Shown here piece by piece: positions 8,994-64,000 of a stretch of DNA of 64,000 nucleotides. Position 1 is the first letter of the stretch. Each line of letters starts with the position of its first letter. The stretch is taken from NCBI RefSeq assembly GCF_044647545.1, contig NZ_CP172818.1. One strand, given 5' to 3'. This DNA is from Escherichia coli. GTDB taxonomy: Bacteria; Pseudomonadota; Gammaproteobacteria; Enterobacterales; Enterobacteriaceae. The translations under genes and the position numbers were made by a program. Under the pieces are notes generated by a model. That model did no database searches and had not been told where the DNA came from. It was given only the letters and a program-made list of their open reading frames with translations.

Positions 8994-9339
8994 ATCCACC
9001 TCAATTAAAAATTGACCCTGTGAAAAATATGGTCGTTTTATAGGGTCGTCGTAAAAAAGTGACGACGGAAATAATGCGCGGCTATTTTAAAAACGAAGGC
9101 GAGTCATTCACCAGATAAATAAATCCAGTAAATTTGATTTAGGGCAACAGCGGGTTGCCCCATATAGTCATTTGTCTGATTGACAGTGTAGTGCAAGCAA
9201 AAGATTTAATCCTTTAGGCGTAATAAAAAATAATTTATCATGCTAATTATTTGATTTTGTTGTTTTTGCAGGCTTATCAGCAAGAGGGAGTATAACGCGA
9301 TTATTCGCTCATTTTTCAGACATTTGCCATGCTTAAATG

Positions 9340-9352
9340 TGATGTCATCACG
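9340..9352. promoter_or_regulatory. 13-bp palindrome GTGATG-T-CATCAC about 70 bp upstream of ybjD start; candidate operator
   Basis: Perfect 6-bp inverted arms around a central T, read directly from sequence; function not established. Confidence 0.3.
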
Positions 9353-9418
9353 TATTAGCAAGGCCTTTCCCGTTATACTGCCAGCGTAAAGGATAAGTCA
9401 CATATTTCTGGAGGGGAT

Positions 9419-11077
9419 ATGATTCTTGAGCGCGTTGAAATTGTGGGTTTTCGCGGTATCAACCGTTTGTCGTTGATGCTGGAACAAAACAACGTCCTGA
9501 TTGGGGAGAACGCGTGGGGTAAATCCAGCTTGCTGGACGCCTTAACCCTGCTGCTATCGCCAGAATCAGATCTCTACCATTTTGAGCGCGACGATTTCTG
9601 GTTCCCGCCGGGAGATATCAACGGGCGAGAACATCATCTGCATATTATTTTGACCTTCCGCGAATCGCTGCCAGGCCGACATCGGGTTCGCCGCTATCGA
9701 CCGCTGGAAGCGTGCTGGACGCCATGCACCGATGGCTATCACCGTATTTTTTATCGTCTGGAAGGGGAGAGTGCGGAAGACGGCAGCGTGATGACACTCC
9801 GCAGTTTTCTCGATAAAGACGGACATCCGATTGATGTCGAGGATATTAACGATCAGGCACGCCATCTGGTGCGTTTAATGCCGGTGCTGCGCTTGCGTGA
9901 TGCCCGTTTTATGCGCCGTATTCGTAACGGCACGGTGCCAAATGTCCCTAATGTGGAAGTCACCGCGCGCCAGCTCGATTTCCTCGCCCGTGAGTTATCC
10001 TCACATCCGCAAAATCTCTCTGATGGGCAGATTCGTCAGGGACTTTCCGCAATGGTACAGCTGCTTGAGCATTATTTCTCTGAGCAGGGGGCCGGACAGG
10101 CGCGATATCGTTTAATGCGGCGGCGAGCCAGCAATGAGCAACGAAGTTGGCGCTATCTGGATATCATCAACCGGATGATTGACCGACCTGGAGGGCGCTC
10201 GTATCGGGTTATTTTGCTCGGCCTGTTTGCTACTTTGTTGCAGGCAAAAGGCACATTGCGACTGGATAAAGACGCCCGTCCATTGTTGCTGATCGAAGAT
10301 CCAGAAACCCGTTTACACCCCATTATGCTTTCAGTTGCCTGGCATCTGTTGAATCTTCTGCCATTGCAGCGCATTGCCACCACCAACTCTGGCGAGCTGC
10401 TTTCGTTAACGCCGGTAGAGCATGTTTGCCGACTGGTACGTGAGTCCTCGCGCGTTGCCGCCTGGCGTCTGGGGCCGAGTGGTTTGAGTACCGAAGATAG
10501 CCGACGCATATCCTTTCACATTCGTTTTAACCGTCCGTCATCGCTGTTTGCACGCTGCTGGCTGCTGGTGGAAGGGGAAACGGAAACCTGGGTTATCAAT
10601 GAACTGGCGCGTCAGTGCGGACATCATTTTGATGCTGAAGGGATCAAGGTCATTGAGTTTGCCCAGTCCGGGCTAAAGCCACTGGTTAAATTTGCCCGGC
10701 GAATGGGGATTGAATGGCATGTACTGGTCGATGGCGATGAAGCAGGGAAGAAATATGCCGCTACGGTACGCAGCCTGTTGAATAACGATCGGGAAGCCGA
10801 ACGAGAACATTTAACGGCGTTACCGGCGCTGGATATGGAACATTTTATGTATCGCCAGGGATTTTCCGATGTGTTCCACCGCGTGGCGCAAATCCCGGAA
10901 AATGTACCGATGAATCTGCGCAAAATTATCTCGAAAGCGATCCATCGCTCTTCCAAACCCGATCTTGCCATTGAAGTGGCAATGGAGGCCGGACGTCGTG
11001 GTGTGGACTCCGTACCGACGCTGCTGAAAAAAATGTTCTCACGCGTGCTGTGGCTGGCGCGCGGTCGCGCGGATTAA
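9419..11077 (+). CDS. ybjD: OLD-family ATP-dependent endonuclease-like protein (N-terminal ABC/AAA ATPase, C-terminal Toprim-like region)
   Basis: 552-aa ORF; Walker A GENAWGKSS near N-terminus; acidic Toprim-like motifs LLVEGETE and LVDGDEAGK in C-terminal third. Confidence 0.85.
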   Translation: MILERVEIVGFRGINRLSLMLEQNNVLIGENAWGKSSLLDALTLLLSPESDLYHFERDDFWFPPGDINGREHHLHIILTFRESLPGRHRVRRYRPLEACWTPCTDGYHRIFYRLEGESAEDGSVMTLRSFLDKDGHPIDVEDINDQARHLVRLMPVLRLRDARFMRRIRNGTVPNVPNVEVTARQLDFLARELSSHPQNLSDGQIRQGLSAMVQLLEHYFSEQGAGQARYRLMRRRASNEQRSWRYLDIINRMIDRPGGRSYRVILLGLFATLLQAKGTLRLDKDARPLLLIEDPETRLHPIMLSVAWHLLNLLPLQRIATTNSGELLSLTPVEHVCRLVRESSRVAAWRLGPSGLSTEDSRRISFHIRFNRPSSLFARCWLLVEGETETWVINELARQCGHHFDAEGIKVIEFAQSGLKPLVKFARRMGIEWHVLVDGDEAGKKYAATVRSLLNNDREAEREHLTALPALDMEHFMYRQGFSDVFHRVAQIPENVPMNLRKIISKAIHRSSKPDLAIEVAMEAGRRGVDSVPTLLKKMFSRVLWLARGRAD

Positions 11078-30402: not shown

Positions 30403-31014
30403 ATGAAAAAAATTGCTATCACCTGTGCATTACTCTCAAGCTTAGTAGCAAGCAGCGTTTGGGCTGATGCCGCAAGCGATCTGAAAAGCCGCCTGGATAA
30501 AGTCAGCAGCTTCCACGCCAGCTTCACACAAAAAGTGACTGACGGTAGCGGCGCGGCGGTGCAGGAAGGTCAGGGCGATCTGTGGGTCAAACGTCCAAAC
30601 TTATTCAACTGGCATATGACTCAACCTGACGAAAGCATTCTGGTTTCTGACGGTAAAACACTGTGGTTCTATAACCCGTTCGTTGAGCAAGCTACGGCAA
30701 CCTGGCTGAAAGATGCCACCGGTAATACGCCGTTTATGCTGATTGCCCGCAACCAGTCCAGCGACTGGCAGCAGTACAATATCAAACAGAATGGCGATGA
30801 CTTTGTCCTGACGCCGAAAGCCAGCAATGGCAATCTGAAGCAGTTCACCATTAACGTGGGACGTGATGGCACAATCCATCAGTTTAGCGCGGTGGAGCAG
30901 GACGATCAGCGCAGCAGTTATCAGCTGAAATCCCAGCAAAATGGGGCTGTGGATGCAGCGAAATTTACCTTCACCCCGCCGCAAGGCGTCACGGTAGATG
31001 ATCAACGTAAGTAG
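30403..31014 (+). CDS. lolA: outer-membrane lipoprotein carrier protein LolA
   Basis: ORF 30400-31014; signal peptide [21 protein letters not shown]; 203 aa from second Met. Confidence 0.92.
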
Positions 31015-55026: not shown

Positions 55027-56700
55027 ATGACTGAATCTTTTGCTCAACTCTTTGAAGAGTCCTTAAAAGAAATCGAAACCCGCCCGGGTTCTATCGTTCG
55101 TGGCGTTGTTGTTGCTATCGACAAAGACGTAGTACTGGTTGACGCTGGTCTGAAATCTGAGTCCGCCATCCCGGCTGAGCAGTTCAAAAACGCCCAGGGC
55201 GAGCTGGAAATCCAGGTAGGTGACGAAGTTGACGTTGCTCTGGACGCAGTAGAAGACGGCTTCGGTGAAACTCTGCTGTCCCGTGAGAAAGCTAAACGTC
55301 ACGAAGCTTGGATCACGCTGGAAAAAGCTTACGAAGATGCTGAAACTGTTACCGGTGTTATCAACGGCAAAGTTAAGGGCGGCTTCACTGTTGAGCTGAA
55401 CGGTATTCGTGCGTTCCTGCCAGGTTCTCTGGTAGACGTTCGTCCGGTGCGTGACACTCTGCACCTGGAAGGAAAAGAGCTTGAATTCAAAGTAATCAAG
55501 CTGGATCAGAAGCGCAACAACGTTGTTGTTTCTCGTCGTGCCGTTATCGAATCCGAAAACAGCGCAGAGCGCGATCAGCTGCTGGAAAACCTGCAGGAAG
55601 GCATGGAAGTTAAAGGTATCGTTAAGAACCTCACTGACTACGGTGCATTCGTTGATCTGGGCGGCGTTGACGGCCTGCTGCACATCACTGATATGGCCTG
55701 GAAACGCGTTAAGCATCCGAGCGAAATCGTCAACGTGGGCGACGAAATCACTGTTAAAGTGCTGAAGTTCGACCGCGAACGTACCCGTGTATCCCTGGGC
55801 CTGAAACAGCTGGGTGAAGATCCGTGGGTAGCTATCGCTAAACGTTATCCGGAAGGTACCAAACTGACTGGTCGCGTGACCAACCTGACCGACTACGGCT
55901 GCTTCGTTGAAATCGAAGAAGGCGTTGAAGGCCTGGTACACGTTTCCGAAATGGATTGGACCAACAAAAACATCCACCCGTCCAAAGTTGTTAACGTTGG
56001 CGATGTAGTGGAAGTTATGGTTCTGGATATCGACGAAGAACGTCGTCGTATCTCCCTGGGTCTGAAACAGTGCAAAGCTAACCCGTGGCAGCAGTTCGCG
56101 GAAACCCACAACAAGGGTGACCGTGTTGAAGGTAAAATCAAGTCTATCACTGACTTCGGTATCTTCATCGGCCTGGACGGCGGCATCGACGGCCTGGTTC
56201 ACCTGTCTGACATCTCCTGGAACGTTGCAGGCGAAGAAGCAGTTCGTGAATACAAAAAAGGCGACGAAATCGCTGCAGTTGTTCTGCAGGTTGACGCAGA
56301 ACGTGAACGTATCTCCCTGGGCGTTAAACAGCTCGCAGAAGATCCGTTCAACAACTGGGTTGCTCTGAACAAGAAAGGCGCTATCGTAACCGGTAAAGTA
56401 ACTGCAGTTGACGCTAAAGGCGCAACCGTAGAACTGGCTGACGGCGTTGAAGGTTACCTGCGTGCTTCTGAAGCATCCCGTGACCGCGTTGAAGACGCTA
56501 CCCTGGTTCTGAGCGTTGGCGACGAAGTTGAAGCTAAATTCACCGGCGTTGATCGTAAAAACCGCGCAATCAGCCTGTCTGTTCGTGCGAAAGACGAAGC
56601 TGACGAGAAAGATGCAATCGCAACTGTTAACAAACAGGAAGATGCAAACTTCTCCAACAACGCAATGGCTGAAGCTTTCAAAGCAGCTAAAGGCGAGTAA
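55027..56700 (+). CDS. rpsA: 30S ribosomal protein S1
   Basis: 557-aa ORF with six S1 repeats; recognised sequence. Confidence 0.97.
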
Positions 56701-56784
56701 TTCTCTGACTCTTCGGGATTTTTATTCCGAAGTTTGTTGAGTTTACTTGACAGATTGCAGGTTTCGTCCTGTAATCAAGCACTA

Positions 56785-56804
56785 AGGGCGGCTACGGCCG
56801 CCCT
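56785..56804 (+). terminator. stem-loop between rpsA and ihfB (partial terminator or processing site)
   Basis: AGGGCGGC-TACG-GCCGCCCT perfect 8-bp GC stem without a following T run. Confidence 0.4.
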
Positions 56805-56859
56805 TAATCAATGCAGCAACAGCAGCCGCTTAATTTGCCTTTAAGGAACCGGAGGAATC

Positions 56860-57144
56860 ATGACCAAGTCAGAATTGATAGAAAGACTTGCCACCCAGCA
56901 ATCGCACATTCCCGCCAAGACGGTTGAAGATGCAGTAAAAGAGATGCTGGAGCATATGGCCTCGACTCTTGCGCAGGGCGAGCGTATTGAAATCCGCGGT
57001 TTCGGCAGTTTCTCTTTGCACTACCGCGCACCACGTACCGGACGTAATCCGAAGACTGGCGATAAAGTAGAACTGGAAGGAAAATACGTTCCTCACTTTA
57101 AACCAGGTAAAGAACTGCGCGATCGCGCCAATATTTACGGTTAA
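56860..57144 (+). CDS. ihfB: integration host factor beta subunit
   Basis: 94-aa [14 protein letters not shown]; HU/IHF family recognised. Confidence 0.95.
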
Positions 57145-57171
57145 GTTTTTACTCAAACTTGAACGCGAGAA

Positions 57172-57195
57172 AAGCACCTGTCGGGTGCTTTTTTC
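57172..57195 (+). terminator. intrinsic terminator of ihfB
   Basis: AAAAGCACC-TGTCG-GGTGCTTTTTT. Confidence 0.7.
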
Positions 57196-57349
57196 ATTTC
57201 TCTAATCTGGAACTGGAAGCTGCCTCGCAGAGTTTTGAGCAGTTTTCACCCTATCGTTAAATTCTTCTGAACGTGCCTCGGGGAACGCAAAACACCCACC
57301 AGACAACCGTTCAACAAAGTTGCACACTTTCTATAAACAGGGAGGGTGC

Positions 57350-59614
57350 ATGAAAATAACGACAGTCGGCGTATGCATAATTTGCGGAATTTTTCCGTTG
57401 CTGATTTTGCCCCAATTGCCAGGGACAGTAACCCTTGCGTTTCTGACTCTCTTCGCCTGTGTACTGGCATTTATCCCTGTTAAAACCGTCCGTTATATCG
57501 CGCTGACGTTGCTGTTTTTTCTTTGGGGCATATCAGCGGCAAAGCAAATTTTGTGGGCAGGAGAAACCTTAACTGGCGCGACGCAGGATGCAATAGTTGA
57601 GATCACTGCTACTGACGGCATGACCACTCATTACGGTCAAATCACTCATCTACAAAGTCGACGTATATTCCCTGCGCCAGGCCTCGTACTGTATGGCGAA
57701 TATCTTCCGCAAGCGGTTTGTGCCGGACAAGTATGGTCAATGAAACTCAAAGTTCGTGCAGTTCATGGCCAACTTAATGATGGCGGCTTTGATAGCCAGC
57801 GTTATGCCATTGCCCAGCATCAGCCGCTGACCGGCCGCTTTCTGCAGGCAAGTGTCATTGAACCGAATTGTAGCCTGCGTGCACAGTATCTGGCGTCATT
57901 ACAAACAACGCTGCAACCCTATCCGTGGAATGCGGTTATTCTTGGTTTAGGTATGGGGGAACGGTTATCCGTTCCCAAAGAAATCAAAAATATCATGCGC
58001 GATACTGGAACGGCGCATTTAATGGCGATATCGGGATTGCATATCGCTTTTGCGGCGTTGCTGGCTGCCGGACTCATTCGCAGTGGACAAATTTTTCTGC
58101 CTGGGCGCTGGATCCACTGGCAAATGCCATTAATTGGCGGAATCTGCTGTGCTGCTTTTTATGCCTGGCTGACTGGGATGCAACCTCCTGCATTGCGTAC
58201 CGTGGTGGCGCTTGCCATGTGGGGAATGCTTAAGTTAAGTGGGCGACAGTGGAGTGGCTGGGATGTATGGATATGTTGTCTGGCGGCAATTTTGCTGATG
58301 GATCCTGTTGCCATTCTTTCGCAAAGTTTATGGCTCTCTGCCGCTGCGGTCGCGGCGCTGATTTTTTGGTATCAGTGGTTTCCCTGTCCGGAGTGGCAAC
58401 TGCCGCCAGTATTGCGCGCGGTTGTTGCCCTCATCCATCTACAACTGGGAATCACGCTCCTGCTAATGCCTGTGCAAATCGTCGTATTTCATGGCATTAG
58501 TCTGACCTCGTTTATTGCAAACCTATTTGCAATTCCCCTGGTGACATTTATCACGGTTCCGTTGATCCTCGCCGCGATGGTTATGCATTTAAGCGGGCCG
58601 TTAATCGTGGAGCAAGGAGTATGGTTTCTTGCCGACCGGTCTTTGGCTTTGCTTTTCTGGGGGTTAAAGAGTTTGCCAGAAGGGTGGATCAACATTGCTG
58701 AACGTTGGCAATGGCTATCATTTTCCCCATGGTTCTTACTGGTGGTATGGCGATTAAACGCCTGGCGAACGTTGCCAGCAATGTGTGTGGCTGGAGGCTT
58801 GCTGATGTGCTGGCCGCTGTGGCAAAAACCTCGACCTGACGAGTGGCAAGTGTACATGCTTGATGTCGGGCAAGGGCTGGCAATGGTGATAGCCAGAAAC
58901 GGCAAAGCGATTCTCTATGACACGGGACTGGCCTGGCCTGAAGGGGATAGTGGGCAACAACTGATTATCCCCTGGCTCCACTGGCATAATCTTGAACCGG
59001 AAGGCGTTATTCTGAGTCATGAACATCTGGATCACCGGGGAGGGCTGGACTCAATATTGCATACATGGCCGATGTTATGGATCAGAAGTCCGTTAAACTG
59101 GGAACACCATCAGCCCTGTGTGCGTGGCGAAGCGTGGCAATGGCAAGGATTGCGTTTCAGCGCGCACTGGCCTTTACAAGGTAGCAACGATAAAGGAAAT
59201 AACCATTCCTGTGTGGTTAAGGTTGATGACGGGACGAATAGCATTCTTCTAACCGGTGATATTGAAGCCCCTGCTGAACAAAAGATGCTAAGCCGTTACT
59301 GGCAGCAAATGCAGGCAACATTACTTCAGGTACCTCACCATGGCAGTAATACCTCATCATCGTTGCCATTAATTCAGCGAGTGAATGGAAAAGTGGCACT
59401 CGCATCGGCATCGCGCTATAACGCATGGCGACTGCCCTCAAGCAAAGTTAAACATCGCTATCAACAACAGGGTTATAAGTGGCTTGATACTCCACATCAG
59501 GGTCAAATAACGGTCAATTTTTCAGCGCAAGGCTGGCGGATTAGCAGCCTCAGAGAGCAAATTTTACCTCGTTGGTATCATCAGTGGTTTGGCGTGCCAG
59601 TGGATAACGGGTAG
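57350..59614 (+). CDS. ycaI: ComEC/Rec2-family inner-membrane protein with C-terminal metallo-beta-lactamase-like domain
   Basis: ORF 57320-59614; start at MKITTVGVCIICGIF (754 aa); polytopic N-terminal half; HxHxDH motif (SHEHLDHRGG). Confidence 0.85.
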   Translation: MKITTVGVCIICGIFPLLILPQLPGTVTLAFLTLFACVLAFIPVKTVRYIALTLLFFLWGISAAKQILWAGETLTGATQDAIVEITATDGMTTHYGQITHLQSRRIFPAPGLVLYGEYLPQAVCAGQVWSMKLKVRAVHGQLNDGGFDSQRYAIAQHQPLTGRFLQASVIEPNCSLRAQYLASLQTTLQPYPWNAVILGLGMGERLSVPKEIKNIMRDTGTAHLMAISGLHIAFAALLAAGLIRSGQIFLPGRWIHWQMPLIGGICCAAFYAWLTGMQPPALRTVVALAMWGMLKLSGRQWSGWDVWICCLAAILLMDPVAILSQSLWLSAAAVAALIFWYQWFPCPEWQLPPVLRAVVALIHLQLGITLLLMPVQIVVFHGISLTSFIANLFAIPLVTFITVPLILAAMVMHLSGPLIVEQGVWFLADRSLALLFWGLKSLPEGWINIAERWQWLSFSPWFLLVVWRLNAWRTLPAMCVAGGLLMCWPLWQKPRPDEWQVYMLDVGQGLAMVIARNGKAILYDTGLAWPEGDSGQQLIIPWLHWHNLEPEGVILSHEHLDHRGGLDSILHTWPMLWIRSPLNWEHHQPCVRGEAWQWQGLRFSAHWPLQGSNDKGNNHSCVVKVDDGTNSILLTGDIEAPAEQKMLSRYWQQMQATLLQVPHHGSNTSSSLPLIQRVNGKVALASASRYNAWRLPSSKVKHRYQQQGYKWLDTPHQGQITVNFSAQGWRISSLREQILPRWYHQWFGVPVDNG

Positions 59615-59650
59615 AATATGCGGCTATTTCAACAAATGCTGGTTTTTTGA

Positions 59651-61399
59651 ATGCATAACGACAAAGATCTCTCTACGTGGCAGACATTCCGCCGACTGTG
59701 GCCAACCATTGCGCCTTTTAAAGCGGGTCTGATCGTGGCGGGCGTAGCGTTAATCCTCAACGCAGCCAGCGATACCTTCATGTTATCGCTCCTTAAGCCA
59801 CTTCTTGATGATGGCTTTGGTAAAACAGATCGCTCCGTGCTGGTGTGGATGCCGCTGGTGGTGATCGGGCTGATGATTTTGCGTGGTATCACCAGCTATG
59901 TCTCCAGCTACTGTATCTCCTGGGTATCAGGAAAGGTGGTAATGACCATGCGTCGCCGCCTGTTTGGTCACATGATGGGAATGCCGGTTTCATTCTTTGA
60001 CAAACAGTCAACGGGTACGCTGTTGTCACGTATCACCTACGATTCCGAACAGGTTGCTTCTTCCTCTTCCGGCGCACTGATTACTGTTGTGCGTGAAGGT
60101 GCGTCGATCATCGGCCTGTTCATCATGATGTTCTATTACAGTTGGCAACTGTCGATCATTTTGATTGTGCTGGCACCGATTGTTTCGATTGCGATTCGCG
60201 TTGTATCGAAGCGTTTTCGCAATATCAGTAAAAACATGCAGAACACCATGGGGCAGGTGACCACCAGCGCCGAACAAATGCTGAAAGGCCATAAAGAAGT
60301 ATTGATTTTCGGTGGTCAGGAAGTGGAAACGAAACGCTTCGATAAAGTCAGCAACCGAATGCGTCTTCAGGGGATGAAAATGGTTTCAGCCTCTTCTATC
60401 TCTGATCCGATCATTCAGCTGATCGCCTCTTTGGCGCTGGCGTTTGTTCTGTATGCGGCAAGCTTCCCAAGTGTCATGGATAGCCTGACTGCCGGTACGA
60501 TTACCGTTGTTTTCTCTTCAATGATTGCACTTATGCGTCCGCTGAAATCGCTGACCAACGTTAACGCCCAGTTCCAGCGCGGTATGGCGGCTTGTCAGAC
60601 GCTGTTTACCATTCTGGACAGTGAGCAGGAGAAAGACGAAGGTAAGCGCGTGATCGAGCGTGCGACTGGCGACGTGGAATTCCGCAATGTCACCTTTACT
60701 TATCCGGGACGTGACGTACCCGCATTGCGTAACATCAACCTGAAAATTCCGGCAGGGAAGACGGTTGCTCTGGTTGGACGCTCTGGTTCAGGTAAATCAA
60801 CCATCGCCAGCCTGATCACGCGTTTTTACGATATTGATGAAGGCGAAATCCTGATGGATGGTCACGATCTGCGCGAGTATACCCTGGCGTCGTTACGTAA
60901 CCAGGTTGCTCTGGTGTCGCAGAATGTCCATCTGTTTAACGATACGGTTGCCAACAACATTGCTTACGCAAGGACTGAACAGTACAGCCGTGAGCAAATT
61001 GAAGAAGCGGCGCGTATGGCCTACGCTATGGACTTCATCAATAAGATGGATAACGGTCTCGATACAGTGATTGGTGAAAACGGCGTGCTGCTCTCTGGCG
61101 GTCAGCGTCAGCGTATTGCTATCGCTCGAGCCTTGTTGCGTGATAGCCCGATTCTGATTCTGGACGAAGCTACCTCGGCTCTGGATACCGAATCCGAACG
61201 TGCGATTCAGGCGGCACTGGATGAGTTGCAGAAAAACCGTACCTCTCTGGTGATTGCCCACCGCTTGTCTACCATTGAAAAGGCAGACGAAATCGTGGTC
61301 GTCGAGGATGGTGTCATTGTGGAACGCGGTACGCATAACGATTTGCTTGAGCACCGTGGCGTTTACGCGCAACTTCACAAAATGCAGTTTGGCCAATGA
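59651..61399 (+). CDS. msbA: lipid A flippase MsbA (ABC exporter)
   Basis: 582-aa ORF; Walker [10 protein letters not shown], signature LSGGQRQR. Confidence 0.95.
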
Positions 61400-62382
61400 T
61401 CGAAAAAATCTGGTCTGGTGAATCCCCTTTGTGGCGGCTATTGCTGCCACTCTCCTGGTTGTATGGCCTGGTGAGTGGCGCGATCCGTCTTTGCTATAAA
61501 CTAAAACTGAAGCGCGCCTGGCGTGCCCCCGTACCGGTTGTCGTGGTTGGTAATCTCACCGCAGGCGGCAACGGAAAAACCCCGGTCGTTGTCTGGCTGG
61601 TGGAACAGTTGCAACAGCGCGGTATTCGCGTGGGGGTCGTATCGCGGGGATATGGTGGTAAGGCTGAATCTTATCCGCTGTTATTGTCGGCAGATACCAC
61701 CACAGCACAGGCGGGTGATGAACCTGTGTTGATTTATCAACGCACTGATGCGCCTGTTGCGGTTTCTCCCGTGCGTTCTGATGCGATAAAAGCCATTCTG
61801 GCGCAACACCCTGATGTGCAGATCATCGTAACCGACGACGGTTTACAGCATTACCGTCTGGCGCGTGATGTGGAAATTGTCGTTATTGATGGTGTGCGTC
61901 GCTTTGGCAATGGCTGGTGGTTGCCGGCGGGGCCAATGCGTGAGCGAGCGGGGCGCTTAAAGTCGGTTGATGCGGTAATCGTCAACGGTGGTGTCCCCCG
62001 CAGCGGTGAAATCCCCATGCATCTGCTGCCGGGTCAGGCGGTGAATTTACGTACCGGTACGCGTTGTGACGTTACTCAGCTTGAACATGTAGTGGCGATG
62101 GCGGGGATTGGACATCCGCCGCGCTTTTTTGCCACGCTGAAGATGTGCGGCGTACAACCGGAAAAATGTGTACCGCTGGCCGATCATCAGTCTTTGAACC
62201 ATGCGGATGTCAGCGCGTTGGTAAACGCCGGGCAAACGCTGGTAATGACTGAAAAGGATGCGGTTAAATGCCGGGCCTTTGCAGAAGAAAATTGGTGGTA
62301 TTTGCCTGTAGACGCACAGCTTTCAGGTGATGAACCAGCGAAACTGCTTGCGCAACTAACCTCGCTGGCTTCTGGCAACTAG
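61396..62382 (+). CDS. lpxK: tetraacyldisaccharide 4'-kinase
   Basis: 328-aa ORF overlapping msbA stop by 4 bp; P-loop-like [12 protein letters not shown]. Confidence 0.93.
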
Positions 62383-62418
62383 TTACGCCGCGGCAGCGTT
62401 CGATTGATGGAGTCATGA

Positions 62419-63651
62419 ATGTCGCTGCCGCACCTCTCTCTTGCTGATGCGCGTAATCTTCACCTCGCCGCGCAAGGCCTGTTAAACAAACCCCGCCGTC
62501 GAGCGTCGTTGGAGGATATTCCGGCAACGATCTCCCGCATGTCCTTGCTGCAAATCGATACCATCAATATTGTTGCCCGTAGCCCATATCTGGTGCTTTT
62601 CAGTCGTCTGGGAAATTATCCTGCCCAGTGGCTGGATGAGTCTCTGGCGCGTGGCGAATTAATGGAATACTGGGCGCATGAAGCCTGCTTTATGCCGCGT
62701 AGCGATTTTCGTCTTATTCGCCACCGCATGCTGGCACCTGAAAAAATGGGCTGGAAATACAAAGACGCCTGGATGCAGGAACATGCGGCGGAAATTGCAC
62801 TGTTAATTCAGCATATTCATGATAAGGGGCCAGTACGTTCAGCCGATTTTGAGCATCCTCGTAAAGGGGCGAGCGGCTGGTGGGAGTGGAAGCCGCATAA
62901 ACGACATCTGGAAGGTTTATTTACTGCCGGAAAGGTGATGGTGATTGAACGGCGCAACTTCCAGCGCGTTTATGATTTAACTCACCGTGTCATGCCTGAC
63001 TGGGATGATGAGCGCGATCTCGTTTCGCAAGCAGAAGCAGAAATCATCATGCTGGATAACAGTGCGCGTAGCCTGGGAATATTTCGCGAACAGTGGCTGG
63101 CAGATTACTACCGGCTAAAACGTCCGGCACTGGCGGCGTGGCGTGAAGCGAGGGCTGAACAGCAGCAAATCATTGCTGTGCATGTTGAAAAATTGGGCAA
63201 TCTTTGGCTGCATGCTGATTTGCTGCCGCTACTCGAGCGTGCGCTGGCCGGAAAGCTCACTGCAACGCACAGCGCGGTACTTTCGCCTTTTGATCCTGTT
63301 GTCTGGGATCGCAAACGCGCAGAGCAGCTTTTTGATTTTAGCTACCGGCTGGAGTGCTATACCCCAGCGCCGAAACGCCAGTATGGCTATTTTGTTCTGC
63401 CGTTATTACATCGTGGGCAATTAGTTGGGCGAATGGATGCCAAAATGCATCGCCAGACAGGCATCCTTGAAGTTATCTCTCTGTGGTTACAGGAAGGCAT
63501 TAAACCAACGACAACGCTGCAAAAAGGGTTACGTCAGGCGATTACTGATTTCGCTAACTGGCAGCAGGCAACGCGGGTGACATTAGGACGCTGCCCGCAA
63601 GGCCTCTTTACTGATTGCCGCACCGGCTGGGAAATAGACCCCGTCGCATAA
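62419..63651 (+). CDS. ycaQ: winged-helix DNA-binding protein YcaQ (AlkZ-like HTH_42 family, DNA glycosylase family)
   Basis: 410-aa ORF; recognised YcaQ sequence; contains QID segment (LLQIDTINIVAR) near N-terminus. Confidence 0.85.
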   Translation: MSLPHLSLADARNLHLAAQGLLNKPRRRASLEDIPATISRMSLLQIDTINIVARSPYLVLFSRLGNYPAQWLDESLARGELMEYWAHEACFMPRSDFRLIRHRMLAPEKMGWKYKDAWMQEHAAEIALLIQHIHDKGPVRSADFEHPRKGASGWWEWKPHKRHLEGLFTAGKVMVIERRNFQRVYDLTHRVMPDWDDERDLVSQAEAEIIMLDNSARSLGIFREQWLADYYRLKRPALAAWREARAEQQQIIAVHVEKLGNLWLHADLLPLLERALAGKLTATHSAVLSPFDPVVWDRKRAEQLFDFSYRLECYTPAPKRQYGYFVLPLLHRGQLVGRMDAKMHRQTGILEVISLWLQEGIKPTTTLQKGLRQAITDFANWQQATRVTLGRCPQGLFTDCRTGWEIDPVA

Positions 63652-63702
63652 ATGATTATGATAAGATTTATGCATTCATAACCCGATCCATCTGGAGGAA
63701 CT

Positions 63703-64000
<298 letters not shown>

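Follow-up and report, generated by a model that had tools for sequence, protein, structure and literature searches.

The ycaQ gene of E. coli raises the question of why a DNA-repair enzyme is encoded among the essential genes of LPS synthesis. In the window analyzed here, a 64-kb (64,000-nucleotide) stretch of E. coli DNA, ycaQ occupies positions 62419 to 63651 on the + strand. It runs from an ATG to a TAA codon and encodes a 410-residue interstrand-crosslink/N7-alkylguanine DNA glycosylase of the HTH_42 group, within the YcaQ-like clade. The initial annotation of this DNA placed the gene 36 nt after lpxK and 51 nt before ycaR-kdsB with all of these genes on the + strand, which is exact, and read the arrangement as an unusual operon logic that couples genome protection to the envelope. 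We arrive at a different explanation, to which we assign a probability of about 0.9: the open reading frame (ORF) is ycaQ of E. coli, the gene closes a ycaI-msbA-lpxK-ycaQ unit as its last cistron and owes its place there to history, and ycaR-kdsB is served by its own promoter.

The ORF is a genuine conserved gene, and a chance ORF is excluded by the ORF listing, the Pfam match, and the RefSeq annotation of an identical chromosome stretch. The DNA of the region is 100% identical to sequenced E. coli chromosomes, on one of which RefSeq names the product "crosslink repair DNA glycosylase YcaQ", and the ycaQ region was found in 5425 of 5426 complete E. coli genomes with a median of one place per genome. 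The gene corresponds to K-12 b0916 (PMC7367128) in identity and in chromosomal position, with both flanking gaps identical and the QID motif intact. The K-12 product shares 405 of 410 residues with the protein studied here, and none of the five substitutions that separate the two alleles (E123A, Q129L, T205A, D266A, and C391R, K-12 residue first) falls at a residue of known importance. The composition of ycaQ (GC 0.526, GC3 0.521) is like that of its neighbors, and comparison of these two values with the neighboring genes gave no compositional sign of recent transfer. The gene is a single-copy housekeeping gene in ordinary core chromosome that extends over the 64 kb from ybjT to kdsB, and the RefSeq annotation, used without a dedicated cluster-finding program, shows no biosynthetic cluster in the window. 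No NCBIfam model matches YcaQ, and an Rfam search of positions 56000 to 64000 returned nothing credible.

The membership of YcaQ in the HTH_42/AlkZ-like family, which had been claimed from the sequence, is borne out by Pfam, by the RefSeq annotation, and by Foldseek. The match to the AlkZ-like family PF06224 (E = 3.7e-79; 267.2 bits against a gathering score of 25.9) extends from residue 38 to residue 381 and covers profile positions 1 to 329 of 329. The AF2 model of YcaQ (pLDDT 94.9, pTM 0.93) predicts the architecture of AlkZ (5uuj), with winged-helix modules in tandem and a beta subdomain at the C-terminus. The best Foldseek match was the AlkX/YcaQ-DNA structure 9zd6 (E = 2.4e-29, TM 0.81/0.85); AlkZ (5uuj) was matched with E = 3.2e-11 and TM 0.60/0.65, and the Lhr C-terminal domain ranked next. 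Within the PDB sequence set, AlkZ 5uuj was reached neither with phmmer (E up to 10) nor with a 110-sequence YcaQ-like profile. The alignment with AlkZ that the initial annotation had proposed therefore failed by the direct sequence route and was replaced by structure comparison with 5uuj and by alignment with the solved orthologue in 9zd6.

The catalytic Q-hydrophobic-D motif, Q45-I46-D47, is encoded at positions 62551 to 62559 (+ strand) and was located from the sequence, the conservation among homologues, and the 9zd6 alignment; the segment LLQIDTINIVAR, quoted in the initial annotation for this motif, comprises residues 43 to 54. Across 110 diverse homologues, each at most 53% identical to the query, only three alignment columns are invariant, those of Q45, D47, and E83. 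These representatives were taken from a 50%-representative search, the top 120 ordinary homologue matches being near-identical E. coli sequences only. [quoted passage not shown] (2020; PMC7367128) determined that crosslink unhooking by E. coli YcaQ is lost in the Q45A and D47A mutants. Invariance, position, and mutant phenotype together confirm the catalytic role that had been suggested for QID. The YcaQ-like clade is characterized by Q-aliphatic-D and the AlkZ-like clade by (Q/H)-aliphatic-Q (PMC9040887), and Q45-I46-D47 has the form found in the YcaQ-like clade. The alignment also placed the other residues of this clade on the + strand. A89 (codon 62683 to 62685) corresponds to TfuAlkX A102 and AbaAlkX A83, the residue in the WH1 wing that supports the QxD motif; W112 (62752 to 62754) corresponds to TfuAlkX W124, a putative crosslink sensor in the major groove; and Y314 (63358 to 63360), the tip tyrosine of the DNA-binding loop, is conserved in at least 90% of the 110 homologues and corresponds to TfuAlkX Y326, whose role has been described along with those of the other residues (PMC13303869).

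The enzymology and the toxicity discussed here are taken from published papers, and the identity, family, fold, and motif conservation come from the present analysis. On this evidence YcaQ is a monofunctional DNA glycosylase from the YcaQ-like clade of the HTH_42 superfamily, with a concave DNA-binding surface built from three winged-helix modules together with a beta domain at the C-terminus. It cuts the N-glycosidic bond of cationic N7-alkylguanines without base flipping, and in interstrand crosslinks formed by nitrogen mustard or azinomycin it does so on both sides. Catalysis requires Q45 and D47, the loop tipped by Y314 enters the minor groove, and the abasic sites left behind pass to base excision repair (Endo IV). 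For the K-12 protein, published assays (PMC7367128) show glycosylase activity toward monoadducts of N7-alkylguanine as well as nitrogen-mustard interstrand crosslinks, so the crosslink-unhooking function named in the initial annotation is established for the E. coli enzyme. The protein studied here is 99% identical and presumably has the same activity, as judged from this work with K-12-type strains. Additionally, over-expression of YcaQ was toxic unless the D47A mutation was present (PMC7367128).

The closest structurally characterized relative is TfuAlkX from Thermobifida fusca (9zd6), which is 34% identical to YcaQ, belongs to the same clade, and shares with it the QxD motif, the WH1 alanine, the tryptophan sensor, and the loop tyrosine. 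AlkX from A. baumannii is also a member of this clade (PMC13303869, PMC11228520), but alkX is monocistronic and induced by mechlorethamine, whereas E. coli ycaQ is constitutive and lies at the end of an essential-gene operon (PMC11228520). AlkZ from Streptomyces sahachiroi (5uuj), which provides self-resistance to azinomycin, has in common with YcaQ the HTH_42 fold, PF06224, and crosslink unhooking. The two proteins are only 15% identical, and AlkZ carries QxQ in place of QxD, is specific for azinomycin B adducts, and is encoded inside a biosynthetic gene cluster, while YcaQ lies outside such clusters. The C-terminal domain of the Lhr helicase (7lhl) contains AlkZ-type tandem winged-helix modules (Foldseek E about 6e-6), but Lhr is a tetramer in which this domain is fused to a helicase core, is 13-14% identical to YcaQ, and acts on a different substrate; uracil-DNA glycosylase activity is reported for E. 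coli Lhr (PMC10953399).

The genes upstream of ycaQ are all on the + strand. [quoted passage not shown] By Pfam (ABC_membrane and ABC_tran) and annotation, msbA (59651 to 61399) encodes the ABC transporter that is the lipid A/LPS flippase. It overlaps by 4 nt with lpxK (61396 to 62382; Pfam LpxK, E = 7e-116, and annotation), which encodes the tetraacyldisaccharide 4'-kinase and ends in TAG. The 36-nt gap that follows (62383 to 62418) is the same as in K-12 and contains the ycaQ Shine-Dalgarno sequence, GGAG, at 62409 to 62412. A consensus scan of this gap found no promoter-like or terminator-like site, and the hairpin located there is without a U-tract after it. [quoted passage not shown] Co-transcription of lpxK and ycaQ is supported by the short gap, the lack of a terminator-like site, and the 11-fold decrease, the polarity having been determined in a K-12-type strain. 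The polarity fades with distance in the msbA knock-down, and some ycaQ transcripts may start inside msbA or lpxK. We conclude that ycaQ is the last cistron of a constitutive unit and is probably transcribed mainly by read-through from lpxK.

Downstream of ycaQ, a 51-nt gap precedes ycaR (63703 to 63885, + strand), the first gene of the ycaR-kdsB unit, which encodes a Trm112p-like small protein (Pfam Trm112p; NCBIfam YcaR equivalog, E = 2.4e-46). The annotated CMP-Kdo synthetase gene kdsB overlaps ycaR by 4 nt, and its 5' part fills positions 63882 to 64000 (+ strand) and runs past the end of the window. A conserved extended -10 element for ycaR-kdsB, TGATAAGAT, lies on the + strand at 63659 to 63667, 8 nt past the ycaQ stop, and a promoter-like match in the consensus scan overlaps it. 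Of 45 Enterobacterales loci, 44 have the motif TGnTAnnnT at 26 to 39 nt before the ycaR ATG (shuffled sequences: mean 3.7, maximum 10), and around it the ycaQ-ycaR gap varies in sequence and in length, from 31 to 113 nt. A start site for ycaR-kdsB is catalogued at 969865 in old K-12 coordinates (PMC5954155, Suppl. Data 1), which converts to about 63672, 31 nt upstream of ycaR, and a study using Northern blots treated ycaR-kdsB as a simple transcription unit (bioRxiv 2021.11.18.469045). The pair thus has its own extended -10 promoter just beyond the ycaQ stop. Scanning and folding found no terminator between ycaQ and ycaR, so some read-through into ycaR is likely. An AT-rich 8-bp inverted repeat at 63646 to 63673, which takes in the ycaQ stop and the promoter, was considered as a terminator and rejected; it has no U-tract and is absent in the Citrobacter and Enterobacter gaps. 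The element TGATAAGAT lies outside the ycaQ coding sequence, and an altered form would be, for example, TGACCAGAC.

These results divide the claim that ycaQ is co-transcribed with both lipid A and KDO genes: the link from lpxK to ycaQ stands on the 36-nt gap and the CRISPRi data, and the dependence of ycaR-kdsB does not, as this pair has its own promoter. The initial annotation had named a promoter and a terminator isolating ycaQ as evidence that would count against it, and the independent ycaR promoter was found and the terminator was not.

The position of ycaQ in other genomes was examined in a scan seeded with a 9-sequence alignment, the 110-sequence alignment being too diverse as a seed. 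The best 80 of at least 594 loci were compared; Salmonella, Klebsiella, Vibrio, and Pseudomonas fell outside this sample. Among these loci, the order ihfB-ycaI-msbA-lpxK-ycaQ-ycaR-kdsB was colinear in Enterobacteriaceae and Erwiniaceae. Unrelated extra genes, some on the opposite strand, occupy the slot between lpxK and ycaR in Serratia, Rahnella, and Hafnia: those in Serratia and Hafnia are opposite-strand interruptions, and Rahnella has extra same-strand cold-shock genes. The homologues of Budvicia, Aeromonas, and about 25 Betaproteobacteria (51-59% identity) lie in neighborhoods that lack lpxK, ycaR, and kdsB and that are unrelated to one another. The synteny that the initial annotation had proposed to check is therefore kept in Enterobacteriaceae and Erwiniaceae and absent in Budvicia, Aeromonas, and the Betaproteobacteria, and among the loci sampled the linkage of ycaQ to LPS genes is confined to Enterobacterales. 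PA2980 of P. aeruginosa is a protein that we take to be YcaR-like. A single gene separates lpxK (PA2981) and kdsB (PA2979) in this organism, and an ancestral order lpxK-ycaR-kdsB is suggested by the PA2979/PA2981 numbering in one paper and the presumed YcaR-like nature of PA2980. We read the placement of ycaQ as most likely historical, the gene having been inserted at a permissive lpxK/ycaR junction in an ancestor shared by most Enterobacterales. In this position ycaQ would be expressed constitutively and at a low level. Over-production of its enzyme is harmful, and low expression is presumably of benefit.

A second feature that could bear on expression is a perfect 9-bp inverted repeat at 62390 to 62431 (+ strand), which was found by repeat search and has the arms GCGGCAGCG (62390 to 62398) and CGCTGCCGC (62423 to 62431). 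As RNA, the repeat encloses the Shine-Dalgarno sequence and AUG of ycaQ, with an MFE z of -1.8 for 81 nt and -2.7 for 65 nt. The hairpin is strong in Escherichia and Citrobacter loci, and the changes within this group are G-U wobbles without double compensatory changes. Across 37 Enterobacterales loci the median z was -0.48, with 10 of the 37 below -1.5; it was rejected as a conserved Enterobacterales element and kept as a weak, clade-limited lead. The GC-rich hairpin would sequester the translation start of ycaQ until opened by ribosomes finishing translation at the lpxK stop codon (UAG), which lies 8 nt before the 5' arm. We tentatively suggest that the hairpin may damp ycaQ translation or couple it to that of lpxK. 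The combined proposal, that the lpxK/ycaR junction is a lineage-variable slot that captured ycaQ and that the Escherichia-Citrobacter hairpin sets YcaQ dosage post-transcriptionally, is rather unlikely as a whole. If true, it would mean that the essential lipid A kinase and the potentially toxic glycosylase are made in a stoichiometric relation, with synthesis of the latter tied to translation of the former.

Other explanations of the locus differ in what they say of the protein and of its transcript. An older annotation makes YcaQ a winged-helix DNA-binding regulator and no enzyme, as its three winged-helix modules would allow, and "winged helix-turn-helix domain-containing protein" persists as an older name on some copies. 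This has next to no probability: the glycosylase activity of purified E. coli YcaQ is abolished by Q45A and D47A (PMC7367128), and the equivalents of these family-wide invariant residues are at the lesion in the DNA-bound, 34%-identical orthologue. It is also improbable that msbA-lpxK-ycaQ-ycaR-kdsB form a single transcript, with Kdo activation dependent on transcription through ycaQ. The common strand, the short gaps, and the likely read-through where no terminator-like site separates ycaQ from ycaR agree with such a transcript, but the catalogued start upstream of ycaR, the -10 motif held at a fixed distance from ycaR despite variable gaps, and the handling of ycaR-kdsB as a simple unit in the Northern study argue against it, as do the 4.4 kb of opposite-strand genes between ycaQ and ycaR in Hafnia.

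A deliberate co-regulation of crosslink repair with the synthesis of lipid A and Kdo is, in our view, very improbable. Under such a scheme, sigma-70 and sigma-32 promoters could, for example, adjust the amount of YcaQ to growth or to envelope stress, or the protein could work on incoming DNA together with the ComEC-like YcaI. Bradley et al. (2020; PMC7367128) described a putative sigma-32 promoter and an increase of ycaQ in heat and cold shock, and a 2022 mBio paper (PMC9040887) noted competence-related genes near YcaQ-like genes in Streptomyces and E. coli. Moreover, the order ycaI-msbA-lpxK-ycaQ-ycaR-kdsB occurs in every sampled Enterobacteriaceae and Erwiniaceae locus, down to 56% YcaQ identity, a stability for which selection to keep ycaQ co-expressed with the envelope genes is another possible cause. 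However, the similarly diverged homologues of Budvicia, Aeromonas, and Betaproteobacteria lie away from lpxK, msbA, ycaR, kdsB, and ycaI and have no common neighbor, and the slot is broken in Serratia and Hafnia and extended in Rahnella. Alone and damage-inducible, A. baumannii alkX (PMC11228520) also argues against such co-regulation, and no envelope phenotype of ycaQ was found in the literature surveyed. The best reading remains that of a historical placement, in which the location of ycaQ does not indicate functional coupling of crosslink repair to LPS synthesis. The operon placement had already been discussed by Bradley et al. (2020; PMC7367128) and Kunkle (2024), so the unusual operon logic proposed for this locus is not new, and the comparative data argue against the functional LPS coupling that it implies.

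The function, motif, and operon placement of ycaQ have all been published before, as have the role of YcaQ/AlkX as a nuclease-independent bacterial route of interstrand-crosslink repair and that of AlkX in A. baumannii virulence. The additions made here are modest and leave the understanding of the YcaQ system unchanged. One is the strongly conserved extended -10 promoter of ycaR-kdsB right after the ycaQ stop; another, possible addition is the clade-limited hairpin, which may damp ycaQ translation. The linkage of ycaQ to LPS genes lies in a variable slot and is confined to Enterobacterales, and a functional coupling between genome protection and envelope synthesis should not be concluded from it.

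The ycaQ gene (62419..63651, +) runs from ATG to TAA and encodes 410 aa. It lies 36 nt downstream of the TAG stop of lpxK (61396..62382, +) and 51 nt upstream of ycaR (63703..63885, +), which overlaps kdsB (from 63882 on the plus strand, past the window end) by 4 nt. The initial annotation had these ycaQ coordinates and spacings exactly. Upstream, msbA (59651..61399, +) also overlaps lpxK by 4 nt, and the ycaI-msbA gap is exactly 36 nt, the same length as the lpxK-ycaQ gap. The RefSeq start of ycaI is the ATG at 57350 (754 aa); its ORF stays open further back, to a TTG at 57320 (764 aa). By annotation the whole window, ybjT to kdsB, is ordinary E. coli core chromosome. Several E. coli chromosomes match the 1.5 kb around ycaQ at 100% identity; among 5426 complete E. 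coli genomes, 5425 have the region, nearly always as a single copy. For the lpxK-ycaQ-ycaR stretch (62300-63800), four of 5432 matching places sit on plasmid-labelled E. coli records. RefSeq names the ORF, flanked by lpxK and ycaR, "crosslink repair DNA glycosylase YcaQ"; the protein is identical to K-12 YcaQ (b0916) at 405 of 410 residues, and both flanking intergenic gaps are the same as in K-12.

YcaQ covers the entire Pfam profile PF06224 (AlkZ-like, formerly HTH_42) with E=3.7e-79, and no NCBIfam model matches it. An exhaustive search of 1.84 billion cluster representatives yielded 6591 homologues, and in an alignment of 110 full-length representatives, each with at most 53% identity to YcaQ, only Q45, D47, and E83 are invariant. 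The segment that had been quoted as carrying the catalytic motif, LLQIDTINIVAR, corresponds to residues 43-54, with the Q45-I46-D47 codons at 62551-62559 (+). The closest solved structure by sequence (9zd6, E=3e-50) is Thermobifida fusca AlkX (TfuAlkX), an orthologue, with abasic-site DNA. In a pairwise alignment (34% identity) Q45/D47 align to TfuAlkX Q56/D58, the catalytic QxD pair at the lesion, A89 to A102, the WH1 alanine bracing QxD, W112 to W124, a putative crosslink sensor, and Y314 to Y326, the tip of a DNA-binding loop (PMC13303869). In E. coli YcaQ, Q45A and D47A abolish the unhooking of nitrogen-mustard crosslinks (PMC7367128), and the QxD motif distinguishes the YcaQ-like clade from the AlkZ-like clade with (Q/H)xQ (PMC9040887). 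E83 (codon 62665-62667), the third invariant residue, lies in the segment EYWAHEA; its TfuAlkX equivalent would be about E96, and "E96" is absent from the text of PMC13303869, in which E101 (YcaQ E88) was tested and found dispensable.

Streptomyces sahachiroi AlkZ (5uuj) was out of reach by sequence search from YcaQ, the family profile included, and the structure of YcaQ was therefore predicted (pLDDT 94.9, pTM 0.93) and the folds compared. The predicted model matches AlkX (9zd6) with E=2.4e-29 and TM 0.81/0.85, and AlkZ with E=3.2e-11, TM 0.60/0.65, and 15% identity; the next match is the Lhr C-terminal domain. The sequence and fold comparisons thus bear out both the HTH_42/AlkZ-like assignment and the Q-hydrophobic-D motif that had been proposed at the outset. 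YcaQ shows all of the defining features that were open to testing in this analysis.

It had also been proposed that ycaQ is co-transcribed with the lipid A and Kdo genes. A consensus scan of the 36-nt lpxK-ycaQ gap found no promoter-like or terminator-like site. [quoted passage not shown] These reductions indicate that read-through supplies most ycaQ mRNA, in agreement with the catalogued unit ycaI-msbA-lpxK-ycaQ; since the effect fades with distance, a few transcripts may start internally. A sigma-70 promoter precedes the operon, as does a putative sigma-32 promoter; ycaQ is reported not to be induced by damage, its protein to be scarce, and its over-expression to be toxic (PMC7367128).

The start of ycaQ is spanned by a perfect 9-bp GC-rich inverted repeat (62390-62398 / 62423-62431, +) in the gap and the first ycaQ codons, the loop of which contains the Shine-Dalgarno GGAG and the AUG. 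The 5' arm begins 8 nt past the lpxK stop, so a ribosome terminating at lpxK could open the hairpin. Translational coupling or damping of ycaQ, limited to one clade, is therefore a weak possibility, one in keeping with the scarcity of YcaQ and its toxicity when over-expressed. The folding z-score is -1.8 in an 81-nt window and -2.7 in a 65-nt window. In Citrobacter the 5' arm is kept despite a different flanking gap sequence, and three of five loci fold even more strongly (z -4 to -6); 37 Enterobacterales loci together have a median z of -0.48, and the substitutions seen are wobble-compatible, not compensatory. The gap continues the lpxK reading frame and closes with a TGA abutting the ycaQ ATG (TCATGAATG; 62380-62418), so ribosomes reading through the amber codon would pass the hairpin and arrive at the start of ycaQ. 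The ATG is likewise preceded immediately by a stop in E. albertii and several Citrobacter loci, though not in every locus. Only seven essential E. coli genes end in TAG (PMC3001078); lpxK and, in the same window, lolA (30403-31014) are two of them.

For the other side of ycaQ, the proposal of one transcript joining it to both lipid A and Kdo genes is only partly borne out. The consensus scan found no terminator-like site 3' of ycaQ. A CRISPRi study lists a well-defined "kdsB,ycaR" promoter position at 969865 in old K-12 coordinates (PMC5954155), which converts via NC_000913.3 to 31 nt upstream of the ycaR ATG, or ~63672 in the window, 21 nt past the ycaQ stop, and a Northern-blot study handled ycaR-kdsB as a simple transcription unit (bioRxiv 2021.11.18.469045). 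The ycaQ-ycaR gap varies in sequence and in length (31-113 nt) among 45 Enterobacterales loci, and TGnTAnnnT, an extended -10 motif, is present 26-39 nt before the ycaR start codon in 44 of them, compared to 3.7 loci on average and 10 at most after shuffling; in the window it is TGATAAGAT (63659-63667, +). Taken together, the catalogued position, the treatment as a simple unit, and the motif indicate that the Kdo gene pair has its own conserved promoter and does not depend on ycaQ transcription. The link to lpxK is supported by the short gap and the 11-fold CRISPRi drop; the sole part of the initial interpretation that fails is its implication that ycaR-kdsB depends on transcription of ycaQ. 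A perfect inverted repeat, GCATAAAT/ATTTATGC (63646-63673), spans the ycaQ stop and the -10 region; it is not conserved in Citrobacter or Enterobacter gaps. Another, GATCCAT/ATGGATC (63685-63709), encloses the ycaR Shine-Dalgarno and AUG.

Synteny was examined with one genome per species in the best 80 of at least 594 loci (YcaQ homologues of 51-90% identity), classed by tblastn with the E. coli neighbour genes. The order ihfB-ycaI-msbA-lpxK-ycaQ-ycaR-kdsB(-ycbJ) is colinear in all Enterobacteriaceae/Erwiniaceae loci sampled, where the locus sequence extends that far. In Serratia, lpxK and ycaQ lie ~2.7 kb further apart, the additional DNA including an opposite-strand 2-oxoadipate dioxygenase/decarboxylase (HGLS) gene (L049:5261-6673), and in Rahnella two cold-shock-domain genes stand between lpxK and ycaQ (L051:7168-7905). 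Hafnia carries opposite-strand xanthine-dehydrogenase-like molybdenum-hydroxylase genes (a molybdenum hydroxylase plus a 2Fe-2S subunit) between ycaQ and ycaR (L071:9509-13201). The lpxK/ycaR junction, with its lineage-specific cargo, looks like a recurrent insertion slot. In Budvicia, six Aeromonas, and all Betaproteobacteria loci in the scan (Vogesella, Aquitalea, Paraburkholderia, Trinickia, Burkholderia, Undibacterium, and others), no lpxK, ycaR, kdsB, or ycaI lies within 8 kb of the ycaQ homologue. The neighbours in seven of these loci examined are mutually unrelated (AMP-binding enzyme and TetR, ABC transporter, chemoreceptor and GNAT, oxidoreductase and LysE, tRNA synthetase and IspH). 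Acinetobacter baumannii alkX is reportedly monocistronic and mechlorethamine-inducible (PMC11228520), whereas E. coli ycaQ is constitutive and in an operon. In Budvicia aquatica DSM 5075 (L067:8001-9975) the YcaQ homologue, away from LPS genes, has as its same-strand neighbour 47 bp downstream a gene for a 217-aa HhH-GPD base-excision glycosylase (9322-9975), and the pair may form a two-glycosylase repair cassette.

In P. aeruginosa a single gene, which we take to be YcaR-like, lies between lpxK (PA2981) and kdsB (PA2979). The simplest reading is that ycaQ was inserted into an ancestral lpxK-ycaR-kdsB cluster, which would have occurred in an early Enterobacterales lineage, and that other cargo may also have entered the lpxK/ycaR junction in some lineages. 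In base composition ycaQ does not stand out, consistent with an old event.

Each element of the ycaQ finding is already in the literature, and the finding is correct but ordinary. Bradley 2020 (PMC7367128) covers the enzyme, its substrates, the Q45/D47 motif, the operon placement, and the constitutive expression; Bradley 2022 (PMC9040887) defines the clade; Kunkle 2024 (PMC11228520) provides the contrast of a free-standing, inducible orthologue; and the DNA-bound orthologue structure was published in 2026 (PMC13303869). The pairing of ycaQ with LPS genes had been described as an unusual operon logic. The comparative results argue that it arose by chance, through an insertion particular to one lineage, and that the low constitutive expression it provides happens to be suitable.
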